Source: an uncultured delta proteobacterium
Lineage (GTDB): Bacteria > Desulfobacterota > Binatia > UBA9968
NCBI GenBank assembly: GCA_963760795.1
Contig: CAVXEP010000004.1
Location: forward strand, 64,001 to 128,000
DNA length: 64,000 bases
Direction of reading: 5' to 3'
The notes beneath the pieces are model-generated. The model saw only the letters and a program-made list of their open reading frames with translations, did not search any database and had not been told where the DNA came from. The translations under genes were made by a program, and so were the position numbers. Of the stretch, positions 8,462 through 64,000 are shown piece by piece. The stretch's first letter is position 1. Every line of letters begins with the position of its first letter.

Positions 8462-9004
8462 TCACGGCTCACGCCGAATGGGATCGATCGCCATGAGCAA
8501 CCGCGCCACCCCCGGCCGGTCGGCTGGATTTTGGCTGCGATGGGCGAAGAGAATATTGCCTTCGCGATCGAGTAAGAAGTCGCCACCGGACTGATAGATA
8601 TCATCACCCCTGTAAGCCTCCTGCCTCATGCCGCCGCGCAAAAGTTTCCAGTACAACTTCAACGCGGCGGGCGAGAATACTTGGAACCACGACAACCGCT
8701 TTAAAGCGAAAGCGTTATACGCCTGGCGCTCGGGGTCGGCGAGCATGATGAACGGCCACCGATGGCGCTGTTGGTATTGCGCCAGCTGCGCCGGCTTAGC
8801 AAACGACACCACCGCAACGACGACGCCGCGCCGGCCGAACTCACCATGTCGTTGCCGCACCTCGCCGAGATGCGCTTGGCAAGGCAGTCAAGCCAGGTGA
8901 CGCAGAAAAATCAGCAGGAGATATTTGTCGAATTGTCCGGCGAGACTGGCCGGCTGGCCGTCGAGGGTCAGCAGCGGCAATTGTGCGAGGTCAATCTTTT
9001 CCAC
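8462..9004 (-). CDS. Selenoprotein: SelL/PRXL2-like AhpC-TSA redoxin with UxxC (Sec39)
   Basis: Frame open from GTG 9004 through TGA 8890-8888: FLRHLA-U-LPC-QAHL; C-terminal QSGGDFLLD..G.I...H.S..PADRP; hairpin after the TGA. Confidence 0.85.
8852..8882 (-). promoter_or_regulatory. Putative bacterial SECIS element
   Basis: TTGCC-AAGC-GCATCTC-GGC-GAGGTGC-GGCAA; G-initiated apical loop starts 22 nt after UGA. Confidence 0.65.
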
Positions 9005-9152
9005 GTCGTACGACAAAATTTGCCTGGCTTATCCATGTGGTGATACCGGAGGGCGACCACAGGGGCGACCCCCTACAGTTCGGATTCCCTTTTGTGAACT
9101 TTGCGTTCTTTGCGGCCAATCATCCGAATCCGTTTCATCTTGGTACAAAAAC

Positions 9153-39192: not shown

Positions 39193-39696
39193 CTAACCCA
39201 CCGGGCCTTCGTAGTCCGGCCGGACTTTGCGCAGCATGGCGCGCAGATCGGCGCGCAGTTCGTCGAGAGTCGGCCGGCCGACAAACCAGTAGCCGTTGTA
39301 AAGATTGTGGATCGTCAGGTCCGGCATCAGCGCGAACGTATGCGGCATGGCCGTCACCCCCTTGCTTTTGGAGGTCTCGGTCATGTCGAGCAGCTTGACG
39401 ACCTTGCGCTCTTGATCGCTCAGAAATGGATACTGCGCGCCCAAGCCGGTGCGAAAGGCATCGTTGATTTCCGGCGAATCGACACAGCAGACCGCGAGAT
39501 GGCAATAGTTTACCGCCAGCTCCCTTTGCAATTCTACGTATTGGCGCAACTGCACCTGGCACTTGCCTCACCAGTAGCCGCGGTAAAAAGCCAGGATGAA
39601 GGGAAACTTGCCGACCAGCTCGGACAATTTCACGGACTGTCCGTCGTGGTCGGGTAACTCGATGTCGGGAAACTTCTGACCGATCTTGAGATTCAT
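39193..39696 (-). CDS. Selenoprotein: peroxiredoxin-like redoxin (AhpC/TSA) with UxxC (Sec43)
   Basis: AGGAGG RBS, ATG 39696; IGQKFPDIELPDHDG..VKLSEL...LAFYRGYW-U-GKC; TGA 39570-39568 in frame; YPFLSD downstream. Confidence 0.88.
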
Positions 39697-39741
39697 ACTA
39701 CCTCCTTTGGTTTAGGCACGGCATGCGAGTTGGCGTCGACG

Positions 39742-50072: not shown

Positions 50073-50326
50073 GGCCGGACCTTATGTCAGCGCGCTGGTG
50101 ATGACAAGATGAAATCCACTGGGGATAAAAGTTGACTTAATGCTAACTTATCTGATACAGGCCGGTACAATCTGTTGTCGTAACCGGGGAACGGCTTTTG
50201 CAGTGAGAATCTGTCCTGCGCATGCTCGGTCGGGCGCTCGGCTGTATTACCGCCACCGCGCTCTGGAAAATAAATTTCGATCGCTTTGTTCCGCTTGCGA
50301 GCGGCACACATGAAAGGAGAAATGCC

Positions 50327-51274
50327 ATGCAGAGATCCGTGGGCGTTTTGGGGTTCCTCTTTCTTGCCACTGCGCTGGCAGGAACTGTGTCCGCGGCCGA
50401 TCTCAAGTTAATGACCGGACCGCAGGGCGGCGCCTGGGTGCCTCTGGGCGGCCAGCTCAAGGACATGTGGGAAAAGGCGATTGCGAATACATCGGTACAG
50501 GCGCTGCCGGGCGCCGGCATCGCCAACGTGCGCGGCATCGAGGAAGGCAAGACCGATGTCGGCTTCGGCAATTCGATTTCGACCGTCGATGCGATCGCCG
50601 GCAAGCCGCCGTTCCCTAAGCCGCACGCCAACGTTTGCAACGTCGCGACGCTTTATCCGCAATATTTCCAGGTGGTCGTGCGCGCCGATGCCGGCGTCAA
50701 CGCGATCAAGGACTTCAAGGGCAAGGCGATTGCCGCCCAGCCGCGCGGCAACACCGCCGAGGAGATCACCAAGCAGCTCTTGCAGGTAAACGGTCTCACC
50801 TACAACGACGTCAAGATGAGCTTCGTGTCCTATACCGATGCCGTCACTCAAGTGCAGGATGGGCATGCGGTCGCTTTCACCGCCGGGACGACCATTCCCT
50901 CCAGCGCCGTGATGGACCTTGCTAGTTCGCGGGAGGTGAAGCTGATCGATCTCGCCAATCAGCTTGAGGCGATGAAGAAGCTCAATCCCGGCTACACGCT
51001 CAATACCATTCCCAAGGGCACCTATCCGAAGCAGGACAAGGACGTGCAGGTGATCGGCTATGCGACCCACATCGTCGCCTCCTGCAAACTGCCCGAAGAC
51101 ACGGTCTACGGCATGACGAAGACCATCGCGCAAAACACCCAACTGCTCTCCGCCATCGTCAAAGACATCAGGGGACTCACCGCGAAGGGAATGGCCGAGG
51201 ACATCGGCGTGCCGTTCCACCCTGGCGCGGCCAAGTTTTACAAAGAAGCCGGCGTCACCGTGAAGGTGAGATAG
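50327..51274 (+). CDS. TAXI-family TRAP transporter solute receptor
   Basis: AGGAG RBS; signal peptide; TGPQGG.W...G, LYP, PFHPGAAKFYKE. Confidence 0.92.
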   Translation: MQRSVGVLGFLFLATALAGTVSAADLKLMTGPQGGAWVPLGGQLKDMWEKAIANTSVQALPGAGIANVRGIEEGKTDVGFGNSISTVDAIAGKPPFPKPHANVCNVATLYPQYFQVVVRADAGVNAIKDFKGKAIAAQPRGNTAEEITKQLLQVNGLTYNDVKMSFVSYTDAVTQVQDGHAVAFTAGTTIPSSAVMDLASSREVKLIDLANQLEAMKKLNPGYTLNTIPKGTYPKQDKDVQVIGYATHIVASCKLPEDTVYGMTKTIAQNTQLLSAIVKDIRGLTAKGMAEDIGVPFHPGAAKFYKEAGVTVKVR

Positions 51275-51388
51275 CCCGACCGGCGACGCCGACGCGCTCC
51301 CGCGCGTTTGCGCACTGCGACGATGCCCGGTCGTGGGATCTACGTCAACGTCAGTTTCACGTGAGTGAATTGATCTCAAGAGTTATCC

Positions 51389-51466
51389 AAAAATCCCCCT
51401 TCCCCCCTTTTCCAAAGTGGGGAATTGAAAGTCTCCCTTTGTAAAGGGAGATTTAGAGGGATTTTT
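51389..51466. repeat. CCCTTT..AAAGGG inverted pair
   Basis: AAAAATCCCCCTTCCCCCCTTTTCCAAAG ... TCTCCCTTTGTAAAGGGAGATTTAGAGGGATTTTT. Confidence 0.75.
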
Positions 51467-51520
51467 GATTCGGCTCACGACGACTTTGACGGGACCCTGA
51501 GGGAGAATCGGATAGCTCAG

Positions 51521-53404
51521 GTGAATAAGATCGACTTCAGTTACGCGGGCGTGATTCGTCTCGCCGTGACGGTGAGCGCCGTCGCGATGGGCCTCTATCA
51601 CATGTGGGTGATCGTCGCCGGCCAGCCGGAAGCGATTATCTTCCGCGGCACCCACCTGCTCTTTGCGCTGATTCTGGTCTTTCTAATTTATGGCACCCGC
51701 GTAAATATCCAAAGGCCGATTCCGAGCCTTTTCGACTACACCTGGCTCGCCCTCGGTGTCGCTTCACTGGTCTACCTGTTCATCAATTACGAATACGTCG
51801 TCACGCGCATCTATTACATCGACGCGCTGACGCCGGCCGACATGATCTTCGGCGCGATCCTGCTCGTGGTCGTCACCGAAGCGACCCGCCGCTGTGTCGA
51901 CCTGTCGCTGCCGGTCACCTCGATTCTGTTCCTCCTGTACGGACTGTTCATTGCCAAGCTCGAGCCAATGCGCATCCTCGATCAGCTCTACATGACCACC
52001 GAAGGGGTTTTCGGCCAGGCGCTCGCGGTGTCGGCGTCGTTCGTGATTATCTTCGTCGTGTTCGGCGCTTTTATGGAGCGCACCGGCGTCGGCCAATTGT
52101 TCATGGACTTTGCCATGGCGCTTACCGGCCACAGCGCCGGCGGTCCCGGCAAGGTCTCGGTGATCAGCTCGAGCCTGTTCGGCACGATCTCCGGCAGCGC
52201 GGTCGCCAACGTCATGGTCGACGGACCGATTTCGATCCCGCTGATGAAACGCTCGGGCTTTCCGCCACACTTCGCGGCCGGCGTCGAGGCCACGGCGTCG
52301 ACCGGTGGCCAGATCATGCCGCCGATCATGGGCGCCGCCGCGTTCGTGATGGCGGAGTTCTTGGCCGTCCCTTACAGCCAGGTGGTGATCTGGGCGATCA
52401 TTCCGGCGATTCTCTACTACGTCGCCTGCTTCGCCGCGGTTCATTTCGAGGCCAAACGTCGCGGCATCGTCGGCGTGCCCCGCTCGGAGCTGCCGAAGCT
52501 GCCGGGCGTCATAGCCGAGCGCGGACATCTCTTCCTGCCAATCGTCATTCTGTTAACCGTCATGTATTCTGGCTATAGCGCGCCGCTTGCAGCCCTCGCC
52601 GGCACGGTCGCCTGCTTCCCGGCGGCCGCGCTTCGCAAGTCGACGCGCGTCAACGTCAGGCCGTCGATTGTCATAGAGGCGATGGTGGACGGCGCCAAGA
52701 ATTCGCTCGCGGTCGCGCTGGCCTGCGCTTCCGCCGGCATCATGATCGGCGTGGTGACGCTGTCGGGCCTGGGCATCGTATTCACCCAGTGGGTGGTCGC
52801 GCTGGCGCAGGACAGCCTGTTCATCGCGCTCTTCATGACGATGCTTGCCGGCATCGTGCTCGGTACCGGCCTGCCGACGACACCTTCTTATATTCTCCTT
52901 ACCGCGTTGCTCATCCCCGCGATCATGAAGCTCGGCGTGATCGAGCCGGCTGCCCATATGTTCGCTTTCTATTACGCGATTCTCTCGGCGATCACGCCGC
53001 CGGTGGCGCTCGCCGTGTTTGCCGCGGCCGGACTGGCGAAAGCGGATATGTGGGAAAGCGGCTGGGCCGCCATGAAGGTCGGCGCCGCCGGCTTCATCAT
53101 CCCGTTTATGTTCGTCTATCAGCCGGCGCTGTTGATGATCGGCGACTGGCCGACGATTATCTGGAGCTTTTCGACGGCTTGTGTGGGCATCGCGCTATTC
53201 GCTGGCGGGCTGCACGGTTATTTCATCACCGCCGCTTCCTACCGGCAGCGCGCCTTACTCACCGCCGGCGGGATATGCCTGGTTTTTCCTGGGATCTGGA
53301 CCGATCTTGCCGGAGCCGGCTTCGCGGCCATCGTCATCGTGAGCCAGCTCACCCGGCGCCGCGCCGCCGGCAGCCAAACCGTTAAGCAAGCACAGCCGCA
53401 ATGA
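51521..53404 (+). CDS. TRAP transporter fused 4TM/12TM permease
   Basis: SGSAVANV, EA.ASTGGQIMPPIMGAAAF, ITPPVALA; start approximate because the ORF start at 51425 lies in a repeat. Confidence 0.92.
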   Translation: MNKIDFSYAGVIRLAVTVSAVAMGLYHMWVIVAGQPEAIIFRGTHLLFALILVFLIYGTRVNIQRPIPSLFDYTWLALGVASLVYLFINYEYVVTRIYYIDALTPADMIFGAILLVVVTEATRRCVDLSLPVTSILFLLYGLFIAKLEPMRILDQLYMTTEGVFGQALAVSASFVIIFVVFGAFMERTGVGQLFMDFAMALTGHSAGGPGKVSVISSSLFGTISGSAVANVMVDGPISIPLMKRSGFPPHFAAGVEATASTGGQIMPPIMGAAAFVMAEFLAVPYSQVVIWAIIPAILYYVACFAAVHFEAKRRGIVGVPRSELPKLPGVIAERGHLFLPIVILLTVMYSGYSAPLAALAGTVACFPAAALRKSTRVNVRPSIVIEAMVDGAKNSLAVALACASAGIMIGVVTLSGLGIVFTQWVVALAQDSLFIALFMTMLAGIVLGTGLPTTPSYILLTALLIPAIMKLGVIEPAAHMFAFYYAILSAITPPVALAVFAAAGLAKADMWESGWAAMKVGAAGFIIPFMFVYQPALLMIGDWPTIIWSFSTACVGIALFAGGLHGYFITAASYRQRALLTAGGICLVFPGIWTDLAGAGFAAIVIVSQLTRRRAAGSQTVKQAQPQ

Positions 53405-53713
53405 GTCGGCGCGTACGCCCTGCTCCTTAGCACCAGCGCCGCCGGTCATGACCATGCCAAATGAATTAACCGAATCGAAATCCCCGCGCGGTCGATGGCG
53501 AATTAGCCACTTCGGAGTTTGGCAACAGGAATTCGATGATAAGAAGAAAAACGGTCCTTCCTTTAGTTTATAGCACGCCGGCACCGATACGATCTTGCGC
53601 TCCTCGTCCCATTCTCGGTCTTTGAAGCGCGAAGTACGCAACCCAGTGTTACCATTCAAGCAATTAAATGATCCTGTAATCTTCGCGAAGCAAATATTGG
53701 CATCGGGCGTCGT

Positions 53714-54433
53714 TCAGTTTTCCCCCGCCACCCCCAGAAACTCGCTATCGAGCGCCACTTCCTGCACCGAGCCATGGACTGCGCGCATGCTGTAAGCCCG
53801 CGCGCCGCGCTTGGACGCGATCACTTTATGAATCTCACTGCCAATGAAATGCACGCCGGTCCAGTCTTCGATGGCGACACCGGCGGCGATTTCACCGGCG
53901 GTCAACAACTTATGCAACGACGGCCGGCGCTGCGCTTCGCCGTCGTAGTGCGGACAACAACTGCCAGGAAGAAAACCCAGACAGTCGAGCGGCCGTAGTC
54001 CGTCGGAAAAAGAATCGGTCAACCCCTGCTCGAACCAGCAGATCGCACCGGCGCTCACGCCGGTGAGCACGATGCCGGATTGCCAGGCCTCGCGGAGTAT
54101 CTCGATGGCGCCCCAATCGCGCCACACGGCGATCAAGCTTTTCGTGTTGCCGCCGCCGACGAAGATGACGTCCTGGTTGAGCAGGAACGAGCGCAAGTCC
54201 GGCGTCCGCTTGAAAAACGTCAGCACCGAAGGTTGGCAGCCAAGCTTTAAGAACGCGGTATAGAAACTGGCGACATAATGATCCGGCTCGCCGCTCGCCG
54301 TCGGGATGAAGCAGACGCGCGGGTTGTCCGATCCGCTTTGCCGAATGACGTATTTCTCCAGTTCAAGATTCTCTGCATCCCGGTAAAATCCGCCGCCGCC
54401 GATGGGAATGATCTGTTTGGGTTTCTCCGCCAC
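53714..54433 (-). CDS. Peptidase E (S51) family protein
   Basis: IGGGG, FIPTAS, VGGGNT, GVSAGA, PHYD. Confidence 0.9.
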   Translation of the reverse strand: MAEKPKQIIPIGGGGFYRDAENLELEKYVIRQSGSDNPRVCFIPTASGEPDHYVASFYTAFLKLGCQPSVLTFFKRTPDLRSFLLNQDVIFVGGGNTKSLIAVWRDWGAIEILREAWQSGIVLTGVSAGAICWFEQGLTDSFSDGLRPLDCLGFLPGSCCPHYDGEAQRRPSLHKLLTAGEIAAGVAIEDWTGVHFIGSEIHKVIASKRGARAYSMRAVHGSVQEVALDSEFLGVAGEN

Positions 54434-54449
54434 TCTCTCTCCTCTGCTG

Positions 54450-55758
54450 CTAATACAATTTCACACGCCCACTTCCCTCCGCCCCAATTGTCGACGCCGC
54501 CGATGATCATATCGCGCGCGTCGAGTGTCAAAGCATTGGACGCCGGCGTCGTCGGAGCGCCGGGATAGGTCAAGACACGAATATCGCGGTAGGGACCGAT
54601 GACTTTCTCCGCCGCGGGTAATTCGATCCAGCGATCGCGGCTGCCGGTGCTGACCACGGCGTCCGCTTCAGCGGCGTAGAATAGCAGCGGCGAATCGACA
54701 CCGTCTTTGCCGCCGTACTCGTAAGTGACGAGAACGGTTTTGATGCCGAGCCCCTCGCAGGCGCGAATCGTCAACATCATCTCGACGAAGGCATTGCCCG
54801 AGCCGAGCCAGGTTAGCAGCACCGCGTCGGCGCCCAAACTTTGCGCCAACCGCGCCGCGTTGTGGGCAACGACTTCTTTGGCGTGATGGGTCTCATAGGA
54901 GATGCGCTCTATGATGACGCCGGCAAAATCGACATTGCCCGCCGCTTGCTCGCGGCACAAGCCCAGCGCCAATGGGTGATTCTGCCAATCCCAGGTCGTC
55001 GGGTAATAGCCGATGCCGCGGGTGGTGTTCATGGTCATCGCGCCGTCGAATAATTCATTGGGGTTGAGTGCCGTCGGCAACGACTCGCGGATCGGCAGGC
55101 CATAGTAACTCACGCCGGCATGGGGCTGCTGCGCTTGGGTGATGCAGCCTTGAATCAACACCACCCGTGGCCGCGCGCTGCGCTGCGCCGGCGATGAGAA
55201 AATCTCCGTGCGCGCAGCGGTCAGTCCTTTGGTCGTTTCGGCGAGCTTGCACGCGACTTGATAGGCCGCGTGCTGAATCGCCTGGTGCGCTTCCAGTTCG
55301 CCCAAGCCGGCGCGAATTTCCAGGCTCAACACCAGATGGCGCAGCCCGCTAAAGCGCGATGCCGCCGCGCCGGCGCCCCACATGTCGAGGATGGCGCTGC
55401 GCTGCACGCCGGTGCCGGCGCGAATCGTGCCCTCGTACGCCGCGGCAGCGAGCACGGCCATGCCGGAAAGCCGATGGGTTACACCATCGCCCACCGTCAC
55501 CACCGGACCGATCACGCCGGGAAATACTTGCGCGTCATTATCGAACTTGACTCGCGGCTCGATGACATCGCGGATGCCGGTGACCCGCACCGGTTCGCCC
55601 GGCGACACCACGTCTAGTTGCGCACTGTCAATGCGCGCATCTTGGCGCACCAGCCGAGTCAGATCCTCACGGTCAACTTCCAACAGTTCATCGTGATAAC
55701 CAGATACGCTACCGAGGCGAATCTGCCGCACCGGAAATTCTGCCAAGGTAAGTTGCAT
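54450..55758 (-). CDS. Glycine/sarcosine/betaine reductase component B partner subunit (GrdE-like), copy 2
   Basis: PGE.VRVTGIRDVIEPRVK, G.G.THRLSG, NPNE.FDGA, QNHP, GIKTV; likely +1 indel in the last codons (CELY-stop at 54450 parallels CAAY-stop of copy 1). Confidence 0.85.
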
Positions 55759-55852
55759 GGAGTTTTTCGCTTGGAAACGATAGGTAGCGCGAAGCACAAC
55801 CGATCCGATTTTGGAACCTGTGGAACCGTTGGAACAATTGGAACGTGTTTTT

Positions 55853-56851
55853 TTATTGAAACAGCCCGTCCTTCTCCAACTTGCGCACGATTGAATCGTC
55901 GACGATATTAGCGGCCTTGAGCTGGCGAATTTTTTCATTGCCGAGGCCGAGCAGACGAATCGCGTTGTTGATCCCCTCGGGATTCGGGAACGCGCGCCGC
56001 TCATAGACATTGCGAATCACTTCGTACCCCTCTTCCGCTTCCTCTGGCCGGACGATCTGCAAATTTTTCGTCAGGGTCGCGACCACCGCACCCTTATTGG
56101 ATGGGCGCTGAATGAAAGCGATCGCTTCGACTAAAGCGCGGATCACTTTCTCCGCCGTGGCAGAGTTCGAGTTCAAATAACTTCGGCGCGCTAAAATCGC
56201 CGTGCTCTGAAACGGCACGCCGAGTTTGGTCAGGTCCGCCATCACACGAAAACCCTGCTTCTTGAGCATGGTCGCATAGGCGTAGCCGGCGTAAGTCGCG
56301 TCGATACTGCCCAACATCAAGGACTGCACCATCACGGATTCATCGCCAACGATGCGCAGGTTGATGCCGTCCCGTTTAGGATCGAGTCCCCAGTGTTCGA
56401 GCACCAGCTGGGTGATCATCCAGACGCCGCCACCGATGCTCTGGATACCGATGTTCTTGCCCTTCAAATCGGCCGGCGACGCAATCGCCGGCGACGCCAC
56501 CATGGTGCCGTTGAGTTTGTTGGCCAAGCCGGCGATGAAAGCCAGGTCGAGGCCGTTGGCGATGGCGCCGAGCACGGAGCCATTGGCCGACCCCGAATAG
56601 AACTGCGCCTCGCCCGCCGATAGCGCCGACAACGCCACCGCGGCGTTGCGCATGAAGATCAGATTCACATCCAGATCGTACTTGCGAAAGAAGCCCTGAT
56701 CCCGCGCCACCAGCAAAGCGCCGGCGCCGCGCTCGTTGAGCGACGCGTAGGCGATGACGATTTTGCTCGGCGCCGTGGCCGCGCCGGCGAACTCCATCGT
56801 CGCGAGTAAAGCAATTAATTGCATCGCAATAGCCGTTGCCAGTCTTTTCAT
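55853..56851 (-). CDS. ABC substrate-binding protein, NitT/TauT (SsuA/THI5-like)
   Basis: Signal peptide; VARDQGFFRKYDLD, DLKGK.IG.QSIGGG.W. Confidence 0.88.
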   Translation of the reverse strand: MKRLATAIAMQLIALLATMEFAGAATAPSKIVIAYASLNERGAGALLVARDQGFFRKYDLDVNLIFMRNAAVALSALSAGEAQFYSGSANGSVLGAIANGLDLAFIAGLANKLNGTMVASPAIASPADLKGKNIGIQSIGGGVWMITQLVLEHWGLDPKRDGINLRIVGDESVMVQSLMLGSIDATYAGYAYATMLKKQGFRVMADLTKLGVPFQSTAILARRSYLNSNSATAEKVIRALVEAIAFIQRPSNKGAVVATLTKNLQIVRPEEAEEGYEVIRNVYERRAFPNPEGINNAIRLLGLGNEKIRQLKAANIVDDSIVRKLEKDGLFQ

Positions 56852-56867
56852 CTTCGCTCCGTTTGCA

Positions 56868-58172
56868 TCAATAAGCGGCGCAGTTCCAGCCGCCGCGGCC
56901 CCAATAATCGACGCCGCCGAGAATCATGTCGCGGGCGTCAAGCGTGAACGGGCCCCGCGCCGAAGTTAGCGGCGCGCCCGGATAAGTCAACACTTTGATT
57001 TCCTCGTAGGGACCGACAATTTTTTCCGCCGCCGGCAGTTCGATCCAACGATCGCGGCTGCCGGTGCTGGTCATGGCGCTCGCCGCCGGCGTGTAAAACA
57101 GCAGCGGCGAATCGACGCCGTCTTTGCCGCCGTATTCGTAAGTGACCAAATTGGTCTTGATGCCGCGCCCCTCGCAGGCGCGCAAGGTCAGCATGACATC
57201 GACAAAGGCGTTGCCGGAACCGATCCAGGACAGCAGCGCTGCATCGGCGCCCAGCATGGTCGCCAATTGCGCGGTATTCTGGGCGATCACTTCTTTGCCA
57301 TGAAAGGTATCGAAGGCGATGCGTTCGAGGATGACACCGAGAAAGTTGACGCTGCGGCGATGCGCGCGATAGAGCCCGAGCAGCAACGGATGATTCTGCC
57401 AATCCCAGGTGACCGGGAAGTAGGCCAGGCATCGAGTGGCGTACATGGTGAACGCGCCGTCGAGAAACTCATTGGGATGCACCGTGGTCGCCAGCGAGTC
57501 GCGGACCGGCAGGCCGAAATAGCCGACGCCGGAGTGCGGATTGCCGGCATCGGTCAAACAGCCTTGAATGAGCAGGACACTTGGCAGCGTCGGATCGGCG
57601 CCGCCTAATTCAAAGACCTCGATTTGCGCCGGACTCAATCCAAGCGTCACTTCAGCCAGGCGCTTGGCGGTTTCTAAAGCGGCACGCTGAATGATTGTGT
57701 GCGCGGCGAGTTCCGACAACCCCTTCGCCAGGCGCAGATTCAGAACTAATCCGTTGAGCCCGCTGAATGACGACGCCGCCGCGCCGCCGCCCCACATATC
57801 GAGGATCGCGCTGCGCTGCACGCCGAGCCCGGCGCGCACCATGCCCTCGTACTCGGCCGTGACGAACACAGCCATGCCGGAGAGCCGATGTGTCCGGCCC
57901 TCCCCGACCGGCTGCACCGGCCCAAGCACGCCGGGAAACACTTGCCCCGAGCCGCTCACTTTGACGCGCGGCTCGACGACATCGCGGATGCCGGTGATGC
58001 GAACTTTATCGCCGGGTGAGACGACATCGAGCCAGGCCGCCGCGATGCGGCTCTCCTGCAAGACCGATTGCTCGATGGCCGACTTGTCAACGGTCAGCTG
58101 CCCAGCGGCGTAGTGAAACCGATCGGCGAGCTTGATGCTCGCCACCGGAAACTCCGCCAACTCAAGACGCAT
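56868..58172 (-). CDS. Glycine/sarcosine/betaine reductase component B partner subunit (GrdE-like), copy 1
   Basis: MRLELA, PGDKVRITGIRDVVEPRVK, GEGRTHRLSG, HPNEFLDGA, QNHP, GIKT. Confidence 0.88.
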   Translation of the reverse strand: MRLELAEFPVASIKLADRFHYAAGQLTVDKSAIEQSVLQESRIAAAWLDVVSPGDKVRITGIRDVVEPRVKVSGSGQVFPGVLGPVQPVGEGRTHRLSGMAVFVTAEYEGMVRAGLGVQRSAILDMWGGGAAASSFSGLNGLVLNLRLAKGLSELAAHTIIQRAALETAKRLAEVTLGLSPAQIEVFELGGADPTLPSVLLIQGCLTDAGNPHSGVGYFGLPVRDSLATTVHPNEFLDGAFTMYATRCLAYFPVTWDWQNHPLLLGLYRAHRRSVNFLGVILERIAFDTFHGKEVIAQNTAQLATMLGADAALLSWIGSGNAFVDVMLTLRACEGRGIKTNLVTYEYGGKDGVDSPLLFYTPAASAMTSTGSRDRWIELPAAEKIVGPYEEIKVLTYPGAPLTSARGPFTLDARDMILGGVDYWGRGGWNCAAY

Positions 58173-58230
58173 GGATAATTCCTAGACAAATACCGCAACG
58201 CAGGAATACTCCTACCAAGGTGCTCATAAC

Positions 58231-58319
58231 ATCCCCCTTTGAAAAAGGGGGACCGAGGGGGATTTGAAGTTTACGAGCATGAGAAAATCCCCCCTTCCCC
58301 CCTTTTTCAAAGGGGGGAT
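58231..58319. repeat. CCCCCTTT..AAAGGGGG inverted pair
   Basis: ATCCCCCTTTGAAAAAGGGGGACCGAGGGGGATTT ... AAATCCCCCCTTCCCCCCTTTTTCAAAGGGGGGAT. Confidence 0.8.
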
Positions 58320-58395
58320 AAACTCAACGAACTTATAGGTCATCATCGTAAACGGATGAACGAACACGAGCCGCGAACACGATCACGACTCCCCC

Positions 58396-59736
58396 TCACG
58401 CGCTCGTCGCGATCTTCGGCGTGAACACCGTCGACGATTCGACCTTCGCCTCAAGCGCCTTCAGTGCCGTCGAGACAATCTCGCGGCGCAACTGCGCGTC
58501 CAGCGCGGCGGGCAAGCTTGGATCGCCGCAGGGGTGCGGGATCGATACGCCTTTGACGATACGGCTGGCGCCCACCTGCTCCGCCACCGGATACATCGCA
58601 CTGATCATCGCCACCGGAAGTTTCGCTCGATCGAGTTCTTTGCTAATCACAGCGCCGCTGCGACTACAGGTGCCTCAAGTTGCCACCAGCAAGACCGCTT
58701 CGACGCCGTCCTTTTTTAGATCGGCGGCGATCTCCTGGCCGACCCGGCGCATCACCGCCGGCGAGCCCTGGTTGCCGGGGATCACGTAATAAGCCGGATA
58801 GAGTTTGCCCCGGCCGATCTTGCCGTCGGCTTCCAAAGACCGCAGCGCATCGAGGGGCATGCCGTAGTGCGGGTTTTGATTCATAAAGGCGACGTTGTAA
58901 CCGCCATGCACCGCTTCCCACTGGCCCGGCTCCAACGCTTTCAGCTCGGAGAAATTATATTTACGCCAAAATGTATTGCGATAGGTTTTGAAGCCGTCGG
59001 GATTGCCCCAGGGCACCACGCCGCCGGTGCAAATCACCGCCAAATTGGCCGCGGCGGTATCGGCCAGCGCTGCCGCCGGCTCGACTTTGTCCCAAACCTC
59101 CATGGGGATCTCAGTGGTGAAGGGCTTGCCGTCGATCTTGGCGAGCAACATTTCGATGGCGCGATCCGCGCCGCTCTTGTCGACGCGCACCAGCCGGCGA
59201 ATGCCGCGCGGCAAATATCCCTCGTCCGCCGCCGGCCCGATCTCTTCGCCGTTGGCCAAACGGCAGGCGAAGGTTGCCAGCGCCGCCAGCGCGCGCGCCA
59301 TGCCCGACGCGGTTTCCGCCGTCGGCAGTAAAAACACTTTGTCGTTGTGATTGTCGCGGTAGACGCCGACGCCGGGGTTTTCCGGCTCCATGCCGGTGAC
59401 GCAGCGCATGTCAAGCTTCTCGCTCACCGCCTGGCAAATATCCACGCAGGCGAGCCCATAACGCCCGGCGTTAAACGCCGGACCGGCGATAACCACATCT
59501 GGTTTTTGTTTTTCTAATTCGGCGGTAATGGCCGCCAGCGCGTCGTCTTTGTGTTCATGAAAATAATTGTCGCCAAAGTAAAGCGTCGCGACCACCTGGC
59601 CGCGCTCGGCCAGCTGGGTTTGCAGACCGCGAGCCGCCCCCGCTGCGCCGTCGGCGACGGCGACAGCGATATCGGCCTTGTCCTCGCCGCCGATGCCGGC
59701 GAAAAACTGATTAAGGATATGAACGATGCGGATCAT
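58396..59736 (-). CDS. grdB: Glycine/betaine/sarcosine reductase family selenoprotein B (446 aa, Sec354)
   Basis: NQFFAGIGGEDKAD, GDNYF, AGPAFNAGRYG.AC, GM..ENPG, HGGY, VLLVAT-U-GTC; TGA 58677-58675 in frame with IPHPCGDP downstream. Confidence 0.93.
58644..58666 (-). promoter_or_regulatory. Putative bacterial SECIS element of grdB
   Basis: TAGTCGCAGC-GGC-GCTGTGATTA, 10-bp stem with 2 G-U pairs; loop starts 19 nt after UGA. Confidence 0.7.
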
Positions 59737-59782
59737 GATTTATCCCTCCATCGACGGCTGGTTTAGCGCCACCGCCGTAAAG

Positions 59783-60784
59783 TCATTGCGTCTCCAACTT
59801 GCGTGCGATGCGATCGTCAACCAGATCTTCCACTTTTAGCTTGGTGTACTTGGGATCGACTTTACCCAGCACCCGCAAGGCGTTTTGCATGCCCTCGCGG
59901 GTTGGTGCGATGCGCCGGTCGTAGAGCAGCCGCATGCGTTCGTACAAGTCATCGGTGTTATCGTTGGGCGATAGCCGCAACCATTTACGAATGCTGCGCA
60001 CCACCGCCGCTTGATTGCTTTTGTCCCGGACAAAACTGTTGGCCTTGATGAAGCCGCGCAAAGTCTTCTCTACTACGTCCGGCGAGCTGGCAATAAATCC
60101 CCGCCGCGCCGCCAGCCCGGTTCCCTGGTATGGAATGTTGAGCGCCGTCAAATCCGCCAACAGCCGACCGCCGCTGCGTTGCAAGGCAGAATTATAGGCG
60201 TAGCCCCATACCGAGCCATCGATCAGCCCGGCGTTTAATGATTGCACCAGCACCGACTGGTCGCCGATCACCCGCATCTGAATCTTATCGCGCTCCGGGC
60301 TCAAGCCCCAGTGATCCAACGTCATCATGACAAACATCCATATGCCGCCGCCGATGCTTTGCACGCCGAGCGTCTTGCCTTTCAAATCCTCGGGCTTTTG
60401 GACTTTCGATGAGACGTAAAAGTAACCGTCCAGTTTATTGATCATTCCCGCCACCCAGACCAGATCGAGCCCGCTTGAGATGGCGCCGAGAGCGGAACCG
60501 GTGGCCGACACGGTGTAGAACTCGGCTTCGTTGGCGGCCATCGCAGCCACTGCCACCGGGCCCGTGTTTACCTGAACCAGGTCTGCGTCCAAGCCCTGCT
60601 CTTCGAAGAAACGTTGATCCTTGGCGACAAAGAACAGGCCCATGCGCTCGCTGAAGTCGGCATAGAGGATGCGCACGCGCTTATTGGGCGCCGGCGTCGC
60701 CGCCAGCGAAGTGCCGAGGCAACAAACGAGCCATACCGCCGCCATCGCGCCGGCGGCGAATTTAACCCAGGTCGTGTGCATCAT
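59783..60784 (-). CDS. ABC substrate-binding protein, NitT/TauT (SsuA/THI5-like)
   Basis: AAGGAG RBS; signal peptide; VAKDQRFFEEQGLD, DLKGK.LGVQSIGGG.W; paralogue of 55853-56851. Confidence 0.88.
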   Translation of the reverse strand: MMHTTWVKFAAGAMAAVWLVCCLGTSLAATPAPNKRVRILYADFSERMGLFFVAKDQRFFEEQGLDADLVQVNTGPVAVAAMAANEAEFYTVSATGSALGAISSGLDLVWVAGMINKLDGYFYVSSKVQKPEDLKGKTLGVQSIGGGIWMFVMMTLDHWGLSPERDKIQMRVIGDQSVLVQSLNAGLIDGSVWGYAYNSALQRSGGRLLADLTALNIPYQGTGLAARRGFIASSPDVVEKTLRGFIKANSFVRDKSNQAAVVRSIRKWLRLSPNDNTDDLYERMRLLYDRRIAPTREGMQNALRVLGKVDPKYTKLKVEDLVDDRIARKLETQ

Positions 60785-60870
60785 CGCTGGCTCCTTTCCG
60801 GCCGATTCGTCGATCCCCATGACCATGTAGCGCGCTTCCTTGAATAACTCCACCCGGTGTAAAATTGCAA

Positions 60871-61764
60871 TCACTGTTTCAGCGCACCGAGAGCGATTAG
60901 CGTCTGCTTCACGTCTGCAAGCGCCTCAGCCGTCAGCGGCGCTTGCGGCGGCAACGGCGCGCCCACCGCGTAACCCTGAAGTTCGAGGGCGCCTTTGATG
61001 CAGGCGGCGAGATTGTATTTGGCGAAGGCCTGGTTGAGCGCCCACAGCGGCCGCTGCAACTCCATCGCTCGCGTCCAATCGCCGCGCCGGCAAGTCTCGT
61101 AAAGCGCAACACTCTGGCGCGGCGCGACACAGGCCGGCCCCGCCATCCAACCGACACCGCCGATCAACATGACCGTGGCGGGAATATGCGCCGACGCGGC
61201 AAAGACCTTCATCCGCCCCTGCACTTGATTCAGAATCGACAGGAGCCGGCCGGTATTGTTCGATGCGTCTTTGATATAACCGATGTTGGGAATCTGACTG
61301 AGCCGGTCAATCACCGGCAGGGTTAAATCGGAGCGCTGAAAGGTCGGATTGGTGTAAAGCACCACGGGGAGCGAAACTGCATCGGCAATCGCCTTGAAGT
61401 AATCGAACACGCCGCCGTCCGAGAGCGGGAAATAGGCTTCGAGAATGGCGAGAATGCCGCTCGCCCCCATCTGCGCGAACTCCCGCGCCTGCGCCGTCGC
61501 ATCCGCGATCGTCGTCGATGCCACCCCCGCCACCACCGGCACCCGCCCGCGCGCCGCCTCAATGACGACTTCAACCACCCGCCGCCGCTGCGCCCAGTTT
61601 AGATAGGCAAACTCACCGGTCGAACCGAGCGGCGTCAGGCCATGGACGCCGGCTTTAATAAGATCGTCGCACAGGCGCGCCAGAACATCGCTCTTGACGG
61701 CACCCGAGGAATCGATCGGCGAAACAAGATAGGGGAAAACGCCGTGGAAGTCGGGAGTTGCCAT
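60871..61764 (-). CDS. DapA/NanA (dihydrodipicolinate synthase) family aldolase/lyase
   Basis: GSTGEF, LYTNP, Schiff-base Lys in IKDAS. Confidence 0.9.
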
Positions 61765-61807
61765 AATAGTCGTTGAACCAACGACGGTGATTTTTTTACC
61801 GGTTCGG

Positions 61808-62359
61808 CTAACCGGCGAGCCAGCGCAGTATCCGCAACCCGAGAGCGCCGGCCAATAGGGTCAACATGCCGAACGTCGGGTAGGCAGTTAAGCCAAACCC
61901 GGTTGCGCGCCCAGCGGCGCCGCGTTCGTAACCGCTGGCGAAAAGAATGCGGCCCACGACAAATAGTACCGCGGCCACCGGAATCGCCCGTAGCCAACTA
62001 TGCGGCATGACCGCCGCCCAAATCAAATAAGCGGCGACGGCAAGCACAGACTGCTCCAAGGTATTCTGCAAAATCGCCCGAAGCACCAACATGCGCGAGG
62101 TGCCGATAGTGAGCCCGCTGCCGTCGATATCTTCCGGCGTAGAGAATCGATGGTTCGCCACCCGCATGACCGAAATCATCAGAGTGAGGATCGGCAGCAC
62201 AGCCCACCGCAATCCCCATGCGAGTCGCGCCGCCGGTTCGTCCACGGGCAGCGCGCTTACAGGAATCAAGAACGTAACCCCGCACATGGCAAGCACCGCA
62301 CTTGCCACGGCGGGAATGACGCCGCGCACCACGCCTTTTTGCTTTTCGCTTAATTCCAC
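61808..62359 (-). CDS. MAPEG family membrane protein
   Basis: [20 protein letters not shown]; 4 TM. Confidence 0.75.
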
Positions 62360-62412
62360 TTCGGCCGCAACGCCAAATCTTTGAACCGCAAATTAATCTC
62401 GATGGACAATTG

Positions 62413-62859
62413 TCATCGGGGCAGCGGTGACGAAAGCTCATCCAGTTCTTCCATCTCTTCTGCCGCATCGACAATGCTTTTCGTCCCGGTACAAATGCCG
62501 CTTTGAATATGCTTTTGCTCGGCTGCGACGTAAACCAGGTATTCTTTCTGCTCCTCGAACGGGAATCCGCACCCCTCTCCGGTAAGCCGCGTGACGACAA
62601 CGGTAGTCTCGGCCGCCGCGCCTTTCCACTGTTTCAATATTTCGAACTTAACTCGATGAGCGCCGGTGCGAGTGAGACCTATCCAATCCAAAGTTGGAAC
62701 ACTGATCTTGACGACTCTGCCCTTAAACACCACCGTAGACTGCTTCAACGCCTCGGCGGTTGTCGCCGGCGCGCTACAACTGCAGGCCCGGGCCGATCCC
62801 GTATGGCTGAAGTAAAAGACCAACGCACCGATAATGATTAGTAATTTGGCTGGTCTCAT
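62413..62859 (-). CDS. Exported TIMP/NTR-like protein
   Basis: Signal peptide ending ARA then CSC; VFKG.V, WKG, CGF.F...EYLVY, C..T. Confidence 0.7.
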   Translation of the reverse strand: MRPAKLLIIIGALVFYFSHTGSARACSCSAPATTAEALKQSTVVFKGRVVKISVPTLDWIGLTRTGAHRVKFEILKQWKGAAAETTVVVTRLTGEGCGFPFEEQKEYLVYVAAEQKHIQSGICTGTKSIVDAAEEMEELDELSSPLPR

Positions 62860-63130
62860 AACGCCTCGAAGGTTAACAAAAAGAATGCGCATTTTACACC
62901 TTAAAAACTGTCTTTTTAGAGAGCGCCACGACGACGACGCTCAACCGATCGGCGCAGCCACGCCGCGACTTGGGACGGCGCGGCGGCGAATTAGTGATGA
63001 ACTCCAACCCGGAGCGTCCCGCCATCTGATGACATCGCTTAGTTTTTTCAGTAGAGTCCCACCATGGCAGGCGACCCTGGGCGAGTAGCGTCACGGCGCC
63101 GGCTTGGTTGGATTACGGGAGGCGATTCAT

Positions 63131-64000
63131 TTGGAAACCGCGGCGCGTGAATTTCAGATCATGGTCAAGACTGTCGGGGCGATTTGCAACCTCGACTGTC
63201 ACTATTGCTATTACCTGGAGAAAGAGGATCTCTATCCCAAAGGCTCCAACTTTCGTCTCGACGACAAGACACTGGAAACCTACATCGAGCAGCATATCAA
63301 AGCGACGCCGGGGGAAACCGTCAGTTTCTCATGGCATGGCGGCGAGCCGACCTTGCTCGGCGTCGAGTTTTTCCGCAAGGCGGTGGATCTCCAGAAAAAG
63401 TATCTGCCGTCGAACAAAAAGATCATCAACGGCATCCAGACCAATGGCACGACCATCGATGATGAATGGTGCGAGTTCCTGGCCAAAGAGAATTTCTACA
63501 TTGGCCTGAGTCTGGACGGCCCGCGCGAGCTGCACGACCACTACCGCGTCACCAAGGGGCAGAAGACGACGCACAAACAAGTCGTCCAAGCCTTTCACAT
63601 GCTGCGCAAGGCCAAGGTCCACGTCGACCTGCTGTGCGTCGTCCACGATGTCAACGTCAAACATCCGACCCAGGTCTACCGCTATTTCAAAGAGATCGGC
63701 GGGCAATATCTGCAATTCCTGCCGCTGGTCGAAAAAACCGGCGACCCGAACAATCCGGTGCACCAGCGCTCGGTGCCGTCGGCTGCTTACGGCAAATTTC
63801 TGAGCACGATCTTCGACGAGTGGATGCGCCACGACATCGGCAAGGTGTTTATTCAGCTCTTCGATGAATCGGTGCGGCCGTTCCTGGGCATGGAGCACGC
63901 GTTGTGCATTTATCGCGAGACCTGCGGCGACGTGCCGGTGGTCGAGCATAACGGCGACTTTTACTCCTGCGACCATTATGTCTTGCCCGAATATAAAATC
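63131..64000 (+). CDS. Radical SAM anaerobic sulfatase maturase (anSME) family, runs off the window end
   Basis: GGGAGG RBS, TTG 63131; CNLDCHYCYY, WHGGEPTL, QTNG, SLDGP..LHD..R, YSCDH; absent from the ORF track because it has no stop. Confidence 0.9.
   Translation, partial: METAAREFQIMVKTVGAICNLDCHYCYYLEKEDLYPKGSNFRLDDKTLETYIEQHIKATPGETVSFSWHGGEPTLLGVEFFRKAVDLQKKYLPSNKKIINGIQTNGTTIDDEWCEFLAKENFYIGLSLDGPRELHDHYRVTKGQKTTHKQVVQAFHMLRKAKVHVDLLCVVHDVNVKHPTQVYRYFKEIGGQYLQFLPLVEKTGDPNNPVHQRSVPSAAYGKFLSTIFDEWMRHDIGKVFIQLFDESVRPFLGMEHALCIYRETCGDVPVVEHNGDFYSCDHYVLPEYKI

Follow-up and report, generated by a model that had tools for sequence, protein, structure and literature searches.

A divergent GrdB locus in an uncultured Binatia genome, probably the substrate-specific part of a split Grd-family system in which no GrdD was found

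Grd-type reductases are textbook enzymes of strict anaerobes, which use them to obtain ATP from glycine, sarcosine or betaine. The full clostridial set comprises GrdA, a protein B formed by GrdB, GrdF or GrdH together with GrdE, GrdG or GrdI, and further GrdC, GrdD and TrxAB. Several protein B complexes feeding one A/C system are common in bacteria, and the same has been predicted for the unlinked farEB genes (PMC10838667, available part). Here we describe a locus of this family from an uncultured bacterium of the class Binatia (assembly GCA_963760795.1), situated on contig CAVXEP010000004.1 (C4) in a stretch of 64,000 nucleotides, which we call the window. An earlier note, made from the letters of the window alone, had described seven minus-strand genes at 53714-61764 as a non-canonical reductase system built around the selenoprotein GrdB. 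When we called genes as open reading frames (ORFs) and then named them by Pfam and NCBIfam profiles, all seven were found where that note had placed them: one grdB, two grdE-like genes, two genes for periplasmic substrate-binding proteins (SBPs), a dihydrodipicolinate synthase (DHDPS)-like gene and a peptidase gene (Table 1). Among the papers listed by full-text searches of the open-access literature, none dealt with Grd-type genes in Binatia or with a Grd system lacking GrdD. Our findings suggest that the locus is probably the substrate-specific protein B half of a split, GrdD-less Grd-family system; most economically, it would share one GrdA/GrdC pair with the other protein B modules of its genome.

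The selenocysteine of GrdB and its place in the family

The grdB gene reads through a TGA at 58675-58677, which encodes selenocysteine 354 (Sec354, U in motifs) within the sequence ATUGTCSRS (UxxCxxS), and stops at a second TGA, 58396-58398. All 71 related grdB genes keep the in-frame TGA, with about 92 conserved codons behind it, and all of their products but one (70 of 71) keep the motif U-G-T-C-(S/T)-R-S. Both tRNA-Sec and SelB are encoded in the same genome. Because the TGA is conserved in the relatives, we read it as selenocysteine; it is not a chance stop codon. This reading is not based on the fold of a selenocysteine insertion sequence: a 12-bp hairpin begins 7 nt past the UGA, but the energy of the 69-nt fold is no better than that of shuffled sequences (z 0.23).

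Profile scores place this GrdB within the family (TIGR01918, 458 bits) and outside its described enzymes. Its scores against the glycine, sarcosine and betaine equivalogs are 423.7, 426.8 and 397.9 bits, versus cut-offs of 602.2, 800 and 775, respectively. The reference proteins, taken from annotated plasmid and chromid records and confirmed by NCBIfam profiles, served as controls: GrdB of Acetoanaerobium noterae (946 bits) and of Photobacterium (610 bits) for glycine; GrdF of Peptoclostridium acidaminophilum for sarcosine (854 bits for the first of two copies, the second being named from its record); and GrdH of A. noterae (812 bits) and of Enterococcus gilvus (798 bits) for betaine. Signature motifs for GrdB and GrdF have been published (PMC9751293, available part); the window protein fails both, and four of four controls pass.

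Phylogeny led to the same picture. In a maximum-likelihood tree of 36 rows, the window GrdB falls into a clade of 25 Binatia-type sequences with a support of 100/100; the six references (96/85) and the C13/C20-type paralogues of the genome studied here (98/91) are united in a different clade. Its identity to the references is about 36-42%. All six references read TSTUGTCTRCGA at the selenocysteine, that is, UxxCxxC, the pattern given for Grd enzymes in a review (PMC13188914, available part), and the genome's other paralogues read UGTSTRS or UGTGTRS. Of the 120 matches listed by a homologue search with GrdB, nearly all are 353-residue metagenome forms that end at the selenocysteine codon, and no characterised reference was among these 120. 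Sequence searches detected no solved structure for GrdB or GrdE-like 1. By profiles, tree and motifs, the module is therefore non-canonical, as the earlier note had called it, in that it lies outside the characterised glycine, sarcosine and betaine clades, and we predict from its sequence that its substrate is none of these three compounds.

GrdA, GrdC and GrdD in the genome and its relatives

We searched for the remaining components with hidden Markov models in the whole genome and in two sets of relatives: a sample of 101 genomes of the class Binatia, and 31 genomes that hold a GrdB of the window clade, about half of which are single-chromosome assemblies. The window contains no grdA, grdC or grdD, and the whole-genome search placed only GrdA and GrdC, both on contig C13. 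The GrdA gene (C13:157087-157515) has an in-frame TGA in the motif CFVU (CxxU), and its product scores 172 bits with Pfam and 179.7 bits with NF040748 (cut-off 130). GrdC adjoins it and reaches 538.8 bits with NF040746 versus a cut-off of 450. For GrdD, the best match in the genome, whose assembly (6.58 Mb in 35 contigs with an even G+C content of 56-58%) is 89% complete, was 24.5 bits versus a cut-off of 350, the level of the E. coli and B. subtilis controls. The same profile gave 581 bits with Acetoanaerobium GrdD and 549 bits with Photobacterium GrdD. None of the 101 Binatia genomes rose above the GrdD cut-off, and none of the 31 clade genomes had a match at E<=1e-6 (132 searched).

GrdA and GrdC tend to occur together with GrdB. 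Eleven of the 101 Binatia genomes encode a full-length GrdB; GrdA is present in ten of these eleven, and GrdC stands beside it in the same ten. A selenocysteine-containing GrdA is found in 30 of the 31 genomes holding the window clade, and of 69 related loci, 11 have GrdC immediately after the genes for GrdB and GrdE. One such locus (L052) has the order SBP-GrdE-SBP-GrdE-GrdB-GrdE-GrdC-GrdA; elsewhere, grdC-grdA-grdE-grdB form one block (G047) or the order is grdB-trx-grdC-grdA (G055). The earlier note's description of a system without GrdA, GrdC and GrdD is thus one third right: it stands for GrdD, which was not found, and falls for GrdA and GrdC, which are present elsewhere in the genome. 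That note had named, as the outcome that would speak against it, a complete grdA/grdC/grdD set elsewhere with GrdB nesting among characterised enzymes; what emerged is half of this, since GrdA and GrdC were found, GrdD was not, and GrdB does not nest among the characterised enzymes.

The genome contains five GrdB and seven GrdE-like genes in all, two sets of which have frame breaks. These are a grdB/grdE pair at C4:155424-157977 and a lone grdE-like gene at C7:96546-97725, each of them split; they may be pseudogenes or products of single-base assembly errors like the one at about 54466 described below.

A GrdD stand-in was sought among the neighbours of grdC-grdA in eight genomes, where nothing is conserved beyond the genus: the neighbour is a HAD hydrolase in the genus of our genome; G047 has a DUF255 thioredoxin-like gene in this place, and G055 has a thioredoxin. 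The DUF255/DsbH-type thioredoxin-like gene stands beside C20-type grdE/grdB on contig C20 of our genome (L020:9249-9680) and beside grdC in G047 (L105:12348-13847), and its product is a candidate reductant for the C20-type and G047 Grd systems.

Two partner subunits, a maturase neighbour and competing explanations

Mass spectrometry has identified the pyruvoyl-forming cysteine of this family as Cys242 in C. difficile GrdE (PMC9908766, available part). The processing site reads SGN/CV in the GrdE and GrdG references and SGSFM in GrdI. GrdE-like 1 has Thr246 at the canonical column and Cys248 two residues on; GrdE-like 2 has no cysteine at or near the site (TTRGIGY). Among the 85 Binatia GrdE-like proteins aligned, none carries a cysteine at the canonical column, which is occupied by threonine in 61, leucine in 11, methionine in 7 and other residues in 6. 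GrdE-like 1 scores 199 bits with the GrdG profile versus a cut-off of 780. As no cysteine is found at its processing site, partner 2 is expected to need no pyruvoyl group, as with GrdI or FarE.

The arrangement of one GrdB with two GrdE-like partners, which the earlier note had pointed out, is kept in relatives. The order SBP1-GrdB-GrdE1-SBP2-GrdE2 recurs in four loci (L025, L031, L043 and L045) and partly in three more (L029, L042 and L088), and farther loci have one to three GrdE-like genes per GrdB, often each behind an SBP gene. In a quick tree of 46 rows, GrdE1 and GrdE2 form separate orthologue groups (Shimodaira-Hasegawa-like approximate likelihood ratio test, SH-aLRT, 99; support 100) and are not mutual nearest kin; likewise, the three partners of L052 and those of L081 fall into three different GrdE groups. 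Because the two groups are distinct and well supported, the partners are, by their phylogeny, old diverged lineages and no fresh duplication, and their divergence fits different specificities. We also modelled the fold of GrdB with GrdE-like 2, using custom alignments and three chains, namely the pieces of GrdB before and after the selenocysteine codon and the partner. The model scored 0.93, the best of three controls 0.17; by a calibration that is only rough, the 0.93 mark is reached by 116 of 157 solved complexes and by 2 of 215 mismatched pairs. Contact agreement across runs was at least 89%, and the predicted local distance difference test (pLDDT) of the partner was at least 88. The model supports binding of GrdB to GrdE-like 2.

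We propose the following scheme. The two NMT1-type SBPs would take up two related small substrates in the periplasm. In the cytoplasm, GrdB would pair in turn with GrdE-like 1 or GrdE-like 2, the partner setting specificity, and Sec354 would attack the carbon beside the leaving group to form a selenoether. The bound group would then pass to the unlinked selenoprotein GrdA (CxxU) and be resolved by GrdC, after which a thioredoxin-type system would return GrdA to its reduced form. Without GrdD, the acyl product would probably not leave as acetyl phosphate made by that subunit; it might instead be hydrolysed, for instance, or transferred to coenzyme A.

Upstream of the Grd cluster, and divergent from it, lies a gene for a radical S-adenosylmethionine (SAM) protein of the anaerobic sulfatase maturase type (C4:127131-128405; 476.5 bits with TIGR03942 versus a cut-off of 349.45). 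It is the single copy in the genome, and its orthologues, 95-97% identical, have the Pfam domains Radical_SAM and SPASM. The gene is a divergent upstream neighbour in all eight close-subclade loci with enough flank, though the intervening genes differ, and in L042 it lies 280 bases from grdB; loci at 60-70% identity have no maturase gene within their flanks. No sulfatase gene stands beside it, and four sulfatase-family genes lie on C15, C17, C32 and C34. The full C/S-x-P/A-x-R motif is found in none of GrdB, GrdE-like 1 and GrdE-like 2. A cysteine at the +2 site, as in Cys248, occurs in 12 of 84 GrdE-like proteins: all eight of the GrdE1 group and those of L027, L028, L030 and L090, the last of which groups elsewhere in the GrdE tree and carries no upstream flank. 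New in this window are the maturase neighbour and the kept layout of one GrdB, two partners and two SBPs.

How well does a protein B half that hands over to GrdA and GrdC account for these data? Several findings weigh against it. The locus and the genes for GrdA and GrdC are on different contigs, and the GrdB that neighbours GrdC-GrdA in G047 is a member of the C13/C20-type clade, so that GrdA and GrdC could serve that clade only. One of the 31 clade genomes, G118, gave no GrdA match, and G081 has a GrdB but neither GrdA nor GrdC. The genome's own GrdC shares only about 45% identity with the GrdC that accompanies the window clade in linked loci of relatives. UxxCxxS replaces UxxCxxC in the window GrdB, and transfer to GrdA with an altered motif is our assumption. 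The genomes are kin, so counts of co-occurrence overstate independence; and since close cousins of a true partner pass the fold test too, the model cannot settle whether the partners alternate. Some of the same facts would suit a GrdA-independent reductase, the kind of system that the earlier note had in mind. Here GrdB and its partner would cleave the substrate fully, as PrdAB does, with Cys357 as the residue that resolves the selenoether and a thiol redoxin as the reductant of the Se-S bond, and GrdA and GrdC would be reserved for other GrdB clades. Within 50 kb of the locus there is neither a grdA nor a grdC, UxxC is kept in 70 of 71 clade members while its cysteine is not in the genome's other clades, two selenocysteine redoxins and a glutaredoxin are encoded in the window, the G047 neighbour of GrdC-GrdA is of another clade, and PrdAB provides a family precedent without GrdA (PMC13188914, available part). 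We nevertheless consider such an enzyme unlikely in view of the presence of GrdA in 30 of 31 clade genomes, of GrdC contiguous with clade genes in 11 of 69 loci, with GrdA too in L052, of scores of 75.8 bits for PrdB (TIGR04483, cut-off 300) and 34.6 bits for PrdA (TIGR04480, cut-off 700), and of a distance of 19 and 50 kb to the redoxins. That the locus encodes the protein B of an ordinary glycine, sarcosine or betaine reductase, merely apart from the rest of its operon, is highly improbable on sequence grounds. The Pfam and TIGR01918 family matches would agree with it, as would the names 'glycine reductase' and 'betaine reductase' on close relatives in the Joint Genome Institute (JGI) database. 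Against this stand equivalog scores of 424, 427 and 398 bits, with cut-offs of 602, 800 and 775 that controls pass at 946, 854 and 812 bits, the failed GrdB and GrdF motifs that four of four controls satisfy, the separate clade (100/100), the lack of the canonical cysteine in both partners, and the missing GrdD.

The maturase neighbour raises one further possibility, which is compatible with a protein B half served by GrdA and GrdC: the maturase would turn Cys248 of GrdE-like 1 into formylglycine, replacing the pyruvoyl carbonyl. Partner 1 would then act on a primary or secondary amine, and partner 2 would take a substrate for which no Schiff base is required. This is suggested because the maturase is a subclade neighbour, because Cys248 is present and because there is a precedent in the far system, for which an operon-encoded radical SAM protein making formylglycine has been raised (PMC10838667, available part). 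The neighbour passes TIGR03942, is the only copy in the genome and adjoins no sulfatase; it is divergent from the cluster in eight of eight informative subclade loci, and partners of the Cys248 type fall in the same subclade as the maturase. At least seven genes of the formylglycine-generating enzyme (FGE) family could serve the genome's sulfatases in air. Set against these points, the subclade is essentially one lineage, so that the co-occurrence counts as little more than a single evolutionary event; the context of Cys248, CLAYF, lacks the arginine of C/S-x-P/A-x-R; Cys-type sulfatase candidates in the genome (CMPNR and CTGSR) are possible clients of the maturase; and in the fold model with GrdE2, the confident contacts to GrdB do not include residues 246-248. 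On balance, we regard formylglycine formation on GrdE-like 1 as doubtful. The full combination, a formylglycine-dependent Grd-type selenoenzyme in an oxygen-respiring bacterium, with two cassettes of different chemistry and GrdD-free C2 release via GrdA and GrdC, is rather improbable; if true, it would mean a new cofactor solution, and assimilation instead of fermentation, for Stickland-type reductases.

Genomic setting and comparison with known systems

Table 1. Genes and other features of the Grd cluster and the window (numbering of the window unless a contig is named)
Feature	Position	Strand	Profile match and remarks
AhpC/TSA redoxin	8465-9028	-	TGA 8888-8890, UxxC, FLRHLAULPC
AhpC/TSA redoxin	39196-39711	-	TGA 39568-39570, UxxC, FYRGYWUGKC
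S51 peptidase	53714-54433	-	Pfam Peptidase_S51 (PF03575) 178 bits; PepE/cyanophycinase-like, last gene of the cluster
GrdE-like 2	54247-55758	-	PF09338 Gly_reductase 288 bits
SBP2, periplasmic, NMT1/SsuA-type	55853-56851	-	Pfam NMT1 79 bits; precedes GrdE-like 2
GrdE-like 1, 434 residues	56868-58172	-	PF09338 Gly_reductase 284 bits
Dispersed palindromic repeat element	58221-58319	not assigned	blastn; inside the 223-base GrdB-GrdE1 spacer
GrdB selenoprotein, 446 residues	58396-59736	-	PF07355 GRDB 391.5 bits
SBP1, periplasmic, NMT1/SsuA-type	59783-60874	-	NMT1 61 bits; likely start ATG 60784
DHDPS-like (class I aldolase-type)	60871-61764	-	PF00701 186 bits
MAPEG-family membrane protein	61808-62359	-	PF01124 34.6 bits; between DHDPS-like and maturase genes
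Radical SAM/SPASM, anaerobic sulfatase maturase type, 425 residues	63131-64000, to C4:128405	+	TIGR03942 476.5 bits

The ORF of GrdE-like 2 opens upstream at 56010, and homology begins only at the ATG at 55758. Its homologous part ends at about 54457, and the ORF continues to 54247, with 69 codons inside the S51 gene. This overlap results from one extra G near 54466 relative to three of three aligned relatives, which probably reflects either a fault of the assembly or a change of very recent date.

SBP1 has a signal peptide after the ATG at 60784 and a weak OpuAC match besides NMT1; TauA is its sole match in the PDB, and its gene is kept before grdB in relatives. The N-terminus of SBP2 resembles a signal peptide, and its gene is kept between the partner genes in seven loci (L025, L029, L031, L042, L043, L045 and L088). 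The genome has at least 150 NMT1-type SBP genes (461 first-look candidates, of which 150 were scored, all above the Pfam cut-off). Given this massive expansion of NMT1/THI5-type genes, an SBP next to any gene is not rare here; we argue from the order kept in relatives and not from adjacency alone. Converging on the end of the Grd cluster is a TAXI-type tripartite ATP-independent periplasmic (TRAP) transporter (50222-53404, plus strand), with an NMT1_3 binding protein and a fused DctQM-like permease.

The genes at the cluster's ends are less constant. The DHDPS-like protein scores 153 bits with the dapA profile TIGR00674 (cut-off 206), and its nearest structure is 3eb2, a 'putative DHDPS' (441 bits); by these comparisons it is not a bona fide DapA, and its gene is a variable cluster member, present in L025, L026, L028, L031 and L043 and not in L045. 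The S51 peptidase gene follows GrdE2 in L043 and L045 and not in L025. Both genes were considered as clues to the substrate and set aside, as they vary among close relatives and their nearest structures are uninformative. The MAPEG gene has the same position in L043, and its membership in the system is uncertain. In the closest relative (L045:7556-8749), the stretch that separates the maturase gene from SBP1 carries a cobalamin-independent methionine synthase-like gene (MetE C-terminal type) and an extra NMT1 SBP gene where our genome has its DHDPS-like and MAPEG genes.

The spacer between grdB and the first grdE-like gene holds a palindromic element of about 90 bases with paired CCCCC..GGGGG hairpins, for which blastn found 19 further matches on ten contigs of the same genome. 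Contigs from RNA libraries break in this element at 58232 and 58265, and one skips 58174-58374, so strains differ at this site. Contigs from four such RNA-library runs of three studies, all short (150-490 bases) and mostly 95-99% alike, cover parts of each gene and also the flanks; since DNA may be present in libraries of this kind and a contig is no proof of a transcript, they are only a weak hint of expression. An Rfam search of 53000-64000 gave just two matches, both at chance level.

The host is equipped for oxygen. It has three genes for subunit I of heme-copper oxidases and one for acetate kinase, and Pfam confirmed the oxygenases that the earlier note had seen in the window, namely three Rieske and two luciferase-like oxygenase-type genes. 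The Pfam scan of window ORFs of at least 110 residues, in which a short thioredoxin could be missed, detected no thioredoxin and no prdC; it detected one glutaredoxin and the two AhpC/TSA redoxins with in-frame TGA. The latter are probably selenocysteine-containing peroxiredoxin-like proteins, a known selenoprotein type. Recycling of the Grd enzyme by these two UxxC redoxins, as that note had proposed, gained no support, as they are not linked to the Grd locus.

The locus places the selenium chemistry of the Grd enzymes in a widespread, uncultured, oxygen-respiring soil lineage, in a stripped and rearranged version: GrdD and the pyruvoyl cysteine are missing, the selenocysteine motif is altered, and up to three partner subunits accompany each selenoprotein, each with a binding protein of its own. 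Should the substrates be found, the system would offer a new way in which C-N bonds of soil organic matter, or its bonds to leaving groups of another kind, are broken, a reason for aerobes to keep costly selenoproteins, and a way to test how partners set specificity and what carbonyl group the enzymes employ, a question of long standing. Thanks to the conserved maturase neighbour, mass spectrometry can address this carbonyl question directly.

Compared with the clostridial reference loci (A. noterae, L115; P. acidaminophilum, L113 and L125; E. gilvus, L114), the system shares the selenocysteine-containing GrdB subunit with a GrdE-type partner, a selenocysteine-containing GrdA (CxxU) and GrdC in the genome, and several protein B modules per genome. 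It differs in having UxxCxxS at the active site, no processing cysteine in its partners, two partner genes per GrdB, no GrdD found, no trx at the locus and unlinked GrdA and GrdC, as well as periplasmic SBPs in place of BCCT-type transporters and a host with three heme-copper oxidases. Betaine reductase offers a parallel in GrdI, which, like GrdE-like 2, lacks the processing cysteine, so that no pyruvoyl group is expected in either; by contrast, the window GrdB lies outside the GrdH clade (398 bits versus 775), and GrdH, unlike it, has retained UxxCxxC and shares its operon with grdA, grdC, grdD and trx. D-proline reductase, PrdA/PrdB, is a member of the superfamily that contains selenocysteine and does not depend on GrdA; the window GrdB, however, has the full length of 446 residues and not the short PrdB form, and GrdA co-occurs with it. 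The maturase neighbour resembles an anaerobic sulfatase-maturating enzyme (anSME) in passing the equivalog cut-off as a radical SAM/SPASM protein, and departs from the anSME-sulfatase pair in having no adjoining sulfatase gene. FarE/FarB of Cloacibacillus porcorum, as described in the available part of PMC10838667, is likewise an unlinked protein B module with a predicted shared GrdA/GrdC, a B subunit without the conserved cysteine pair, a partner that is no proprotein and a radical SAM gene nearby. The two GrdE-like proteins are unlike FarE itself (100.2 and 99.8 bits with NF053623 versus a cut-off of 675), and the far host, according to the same part of that paper, is a strict anaerobe with GrdD, unlike the bacterium described here.

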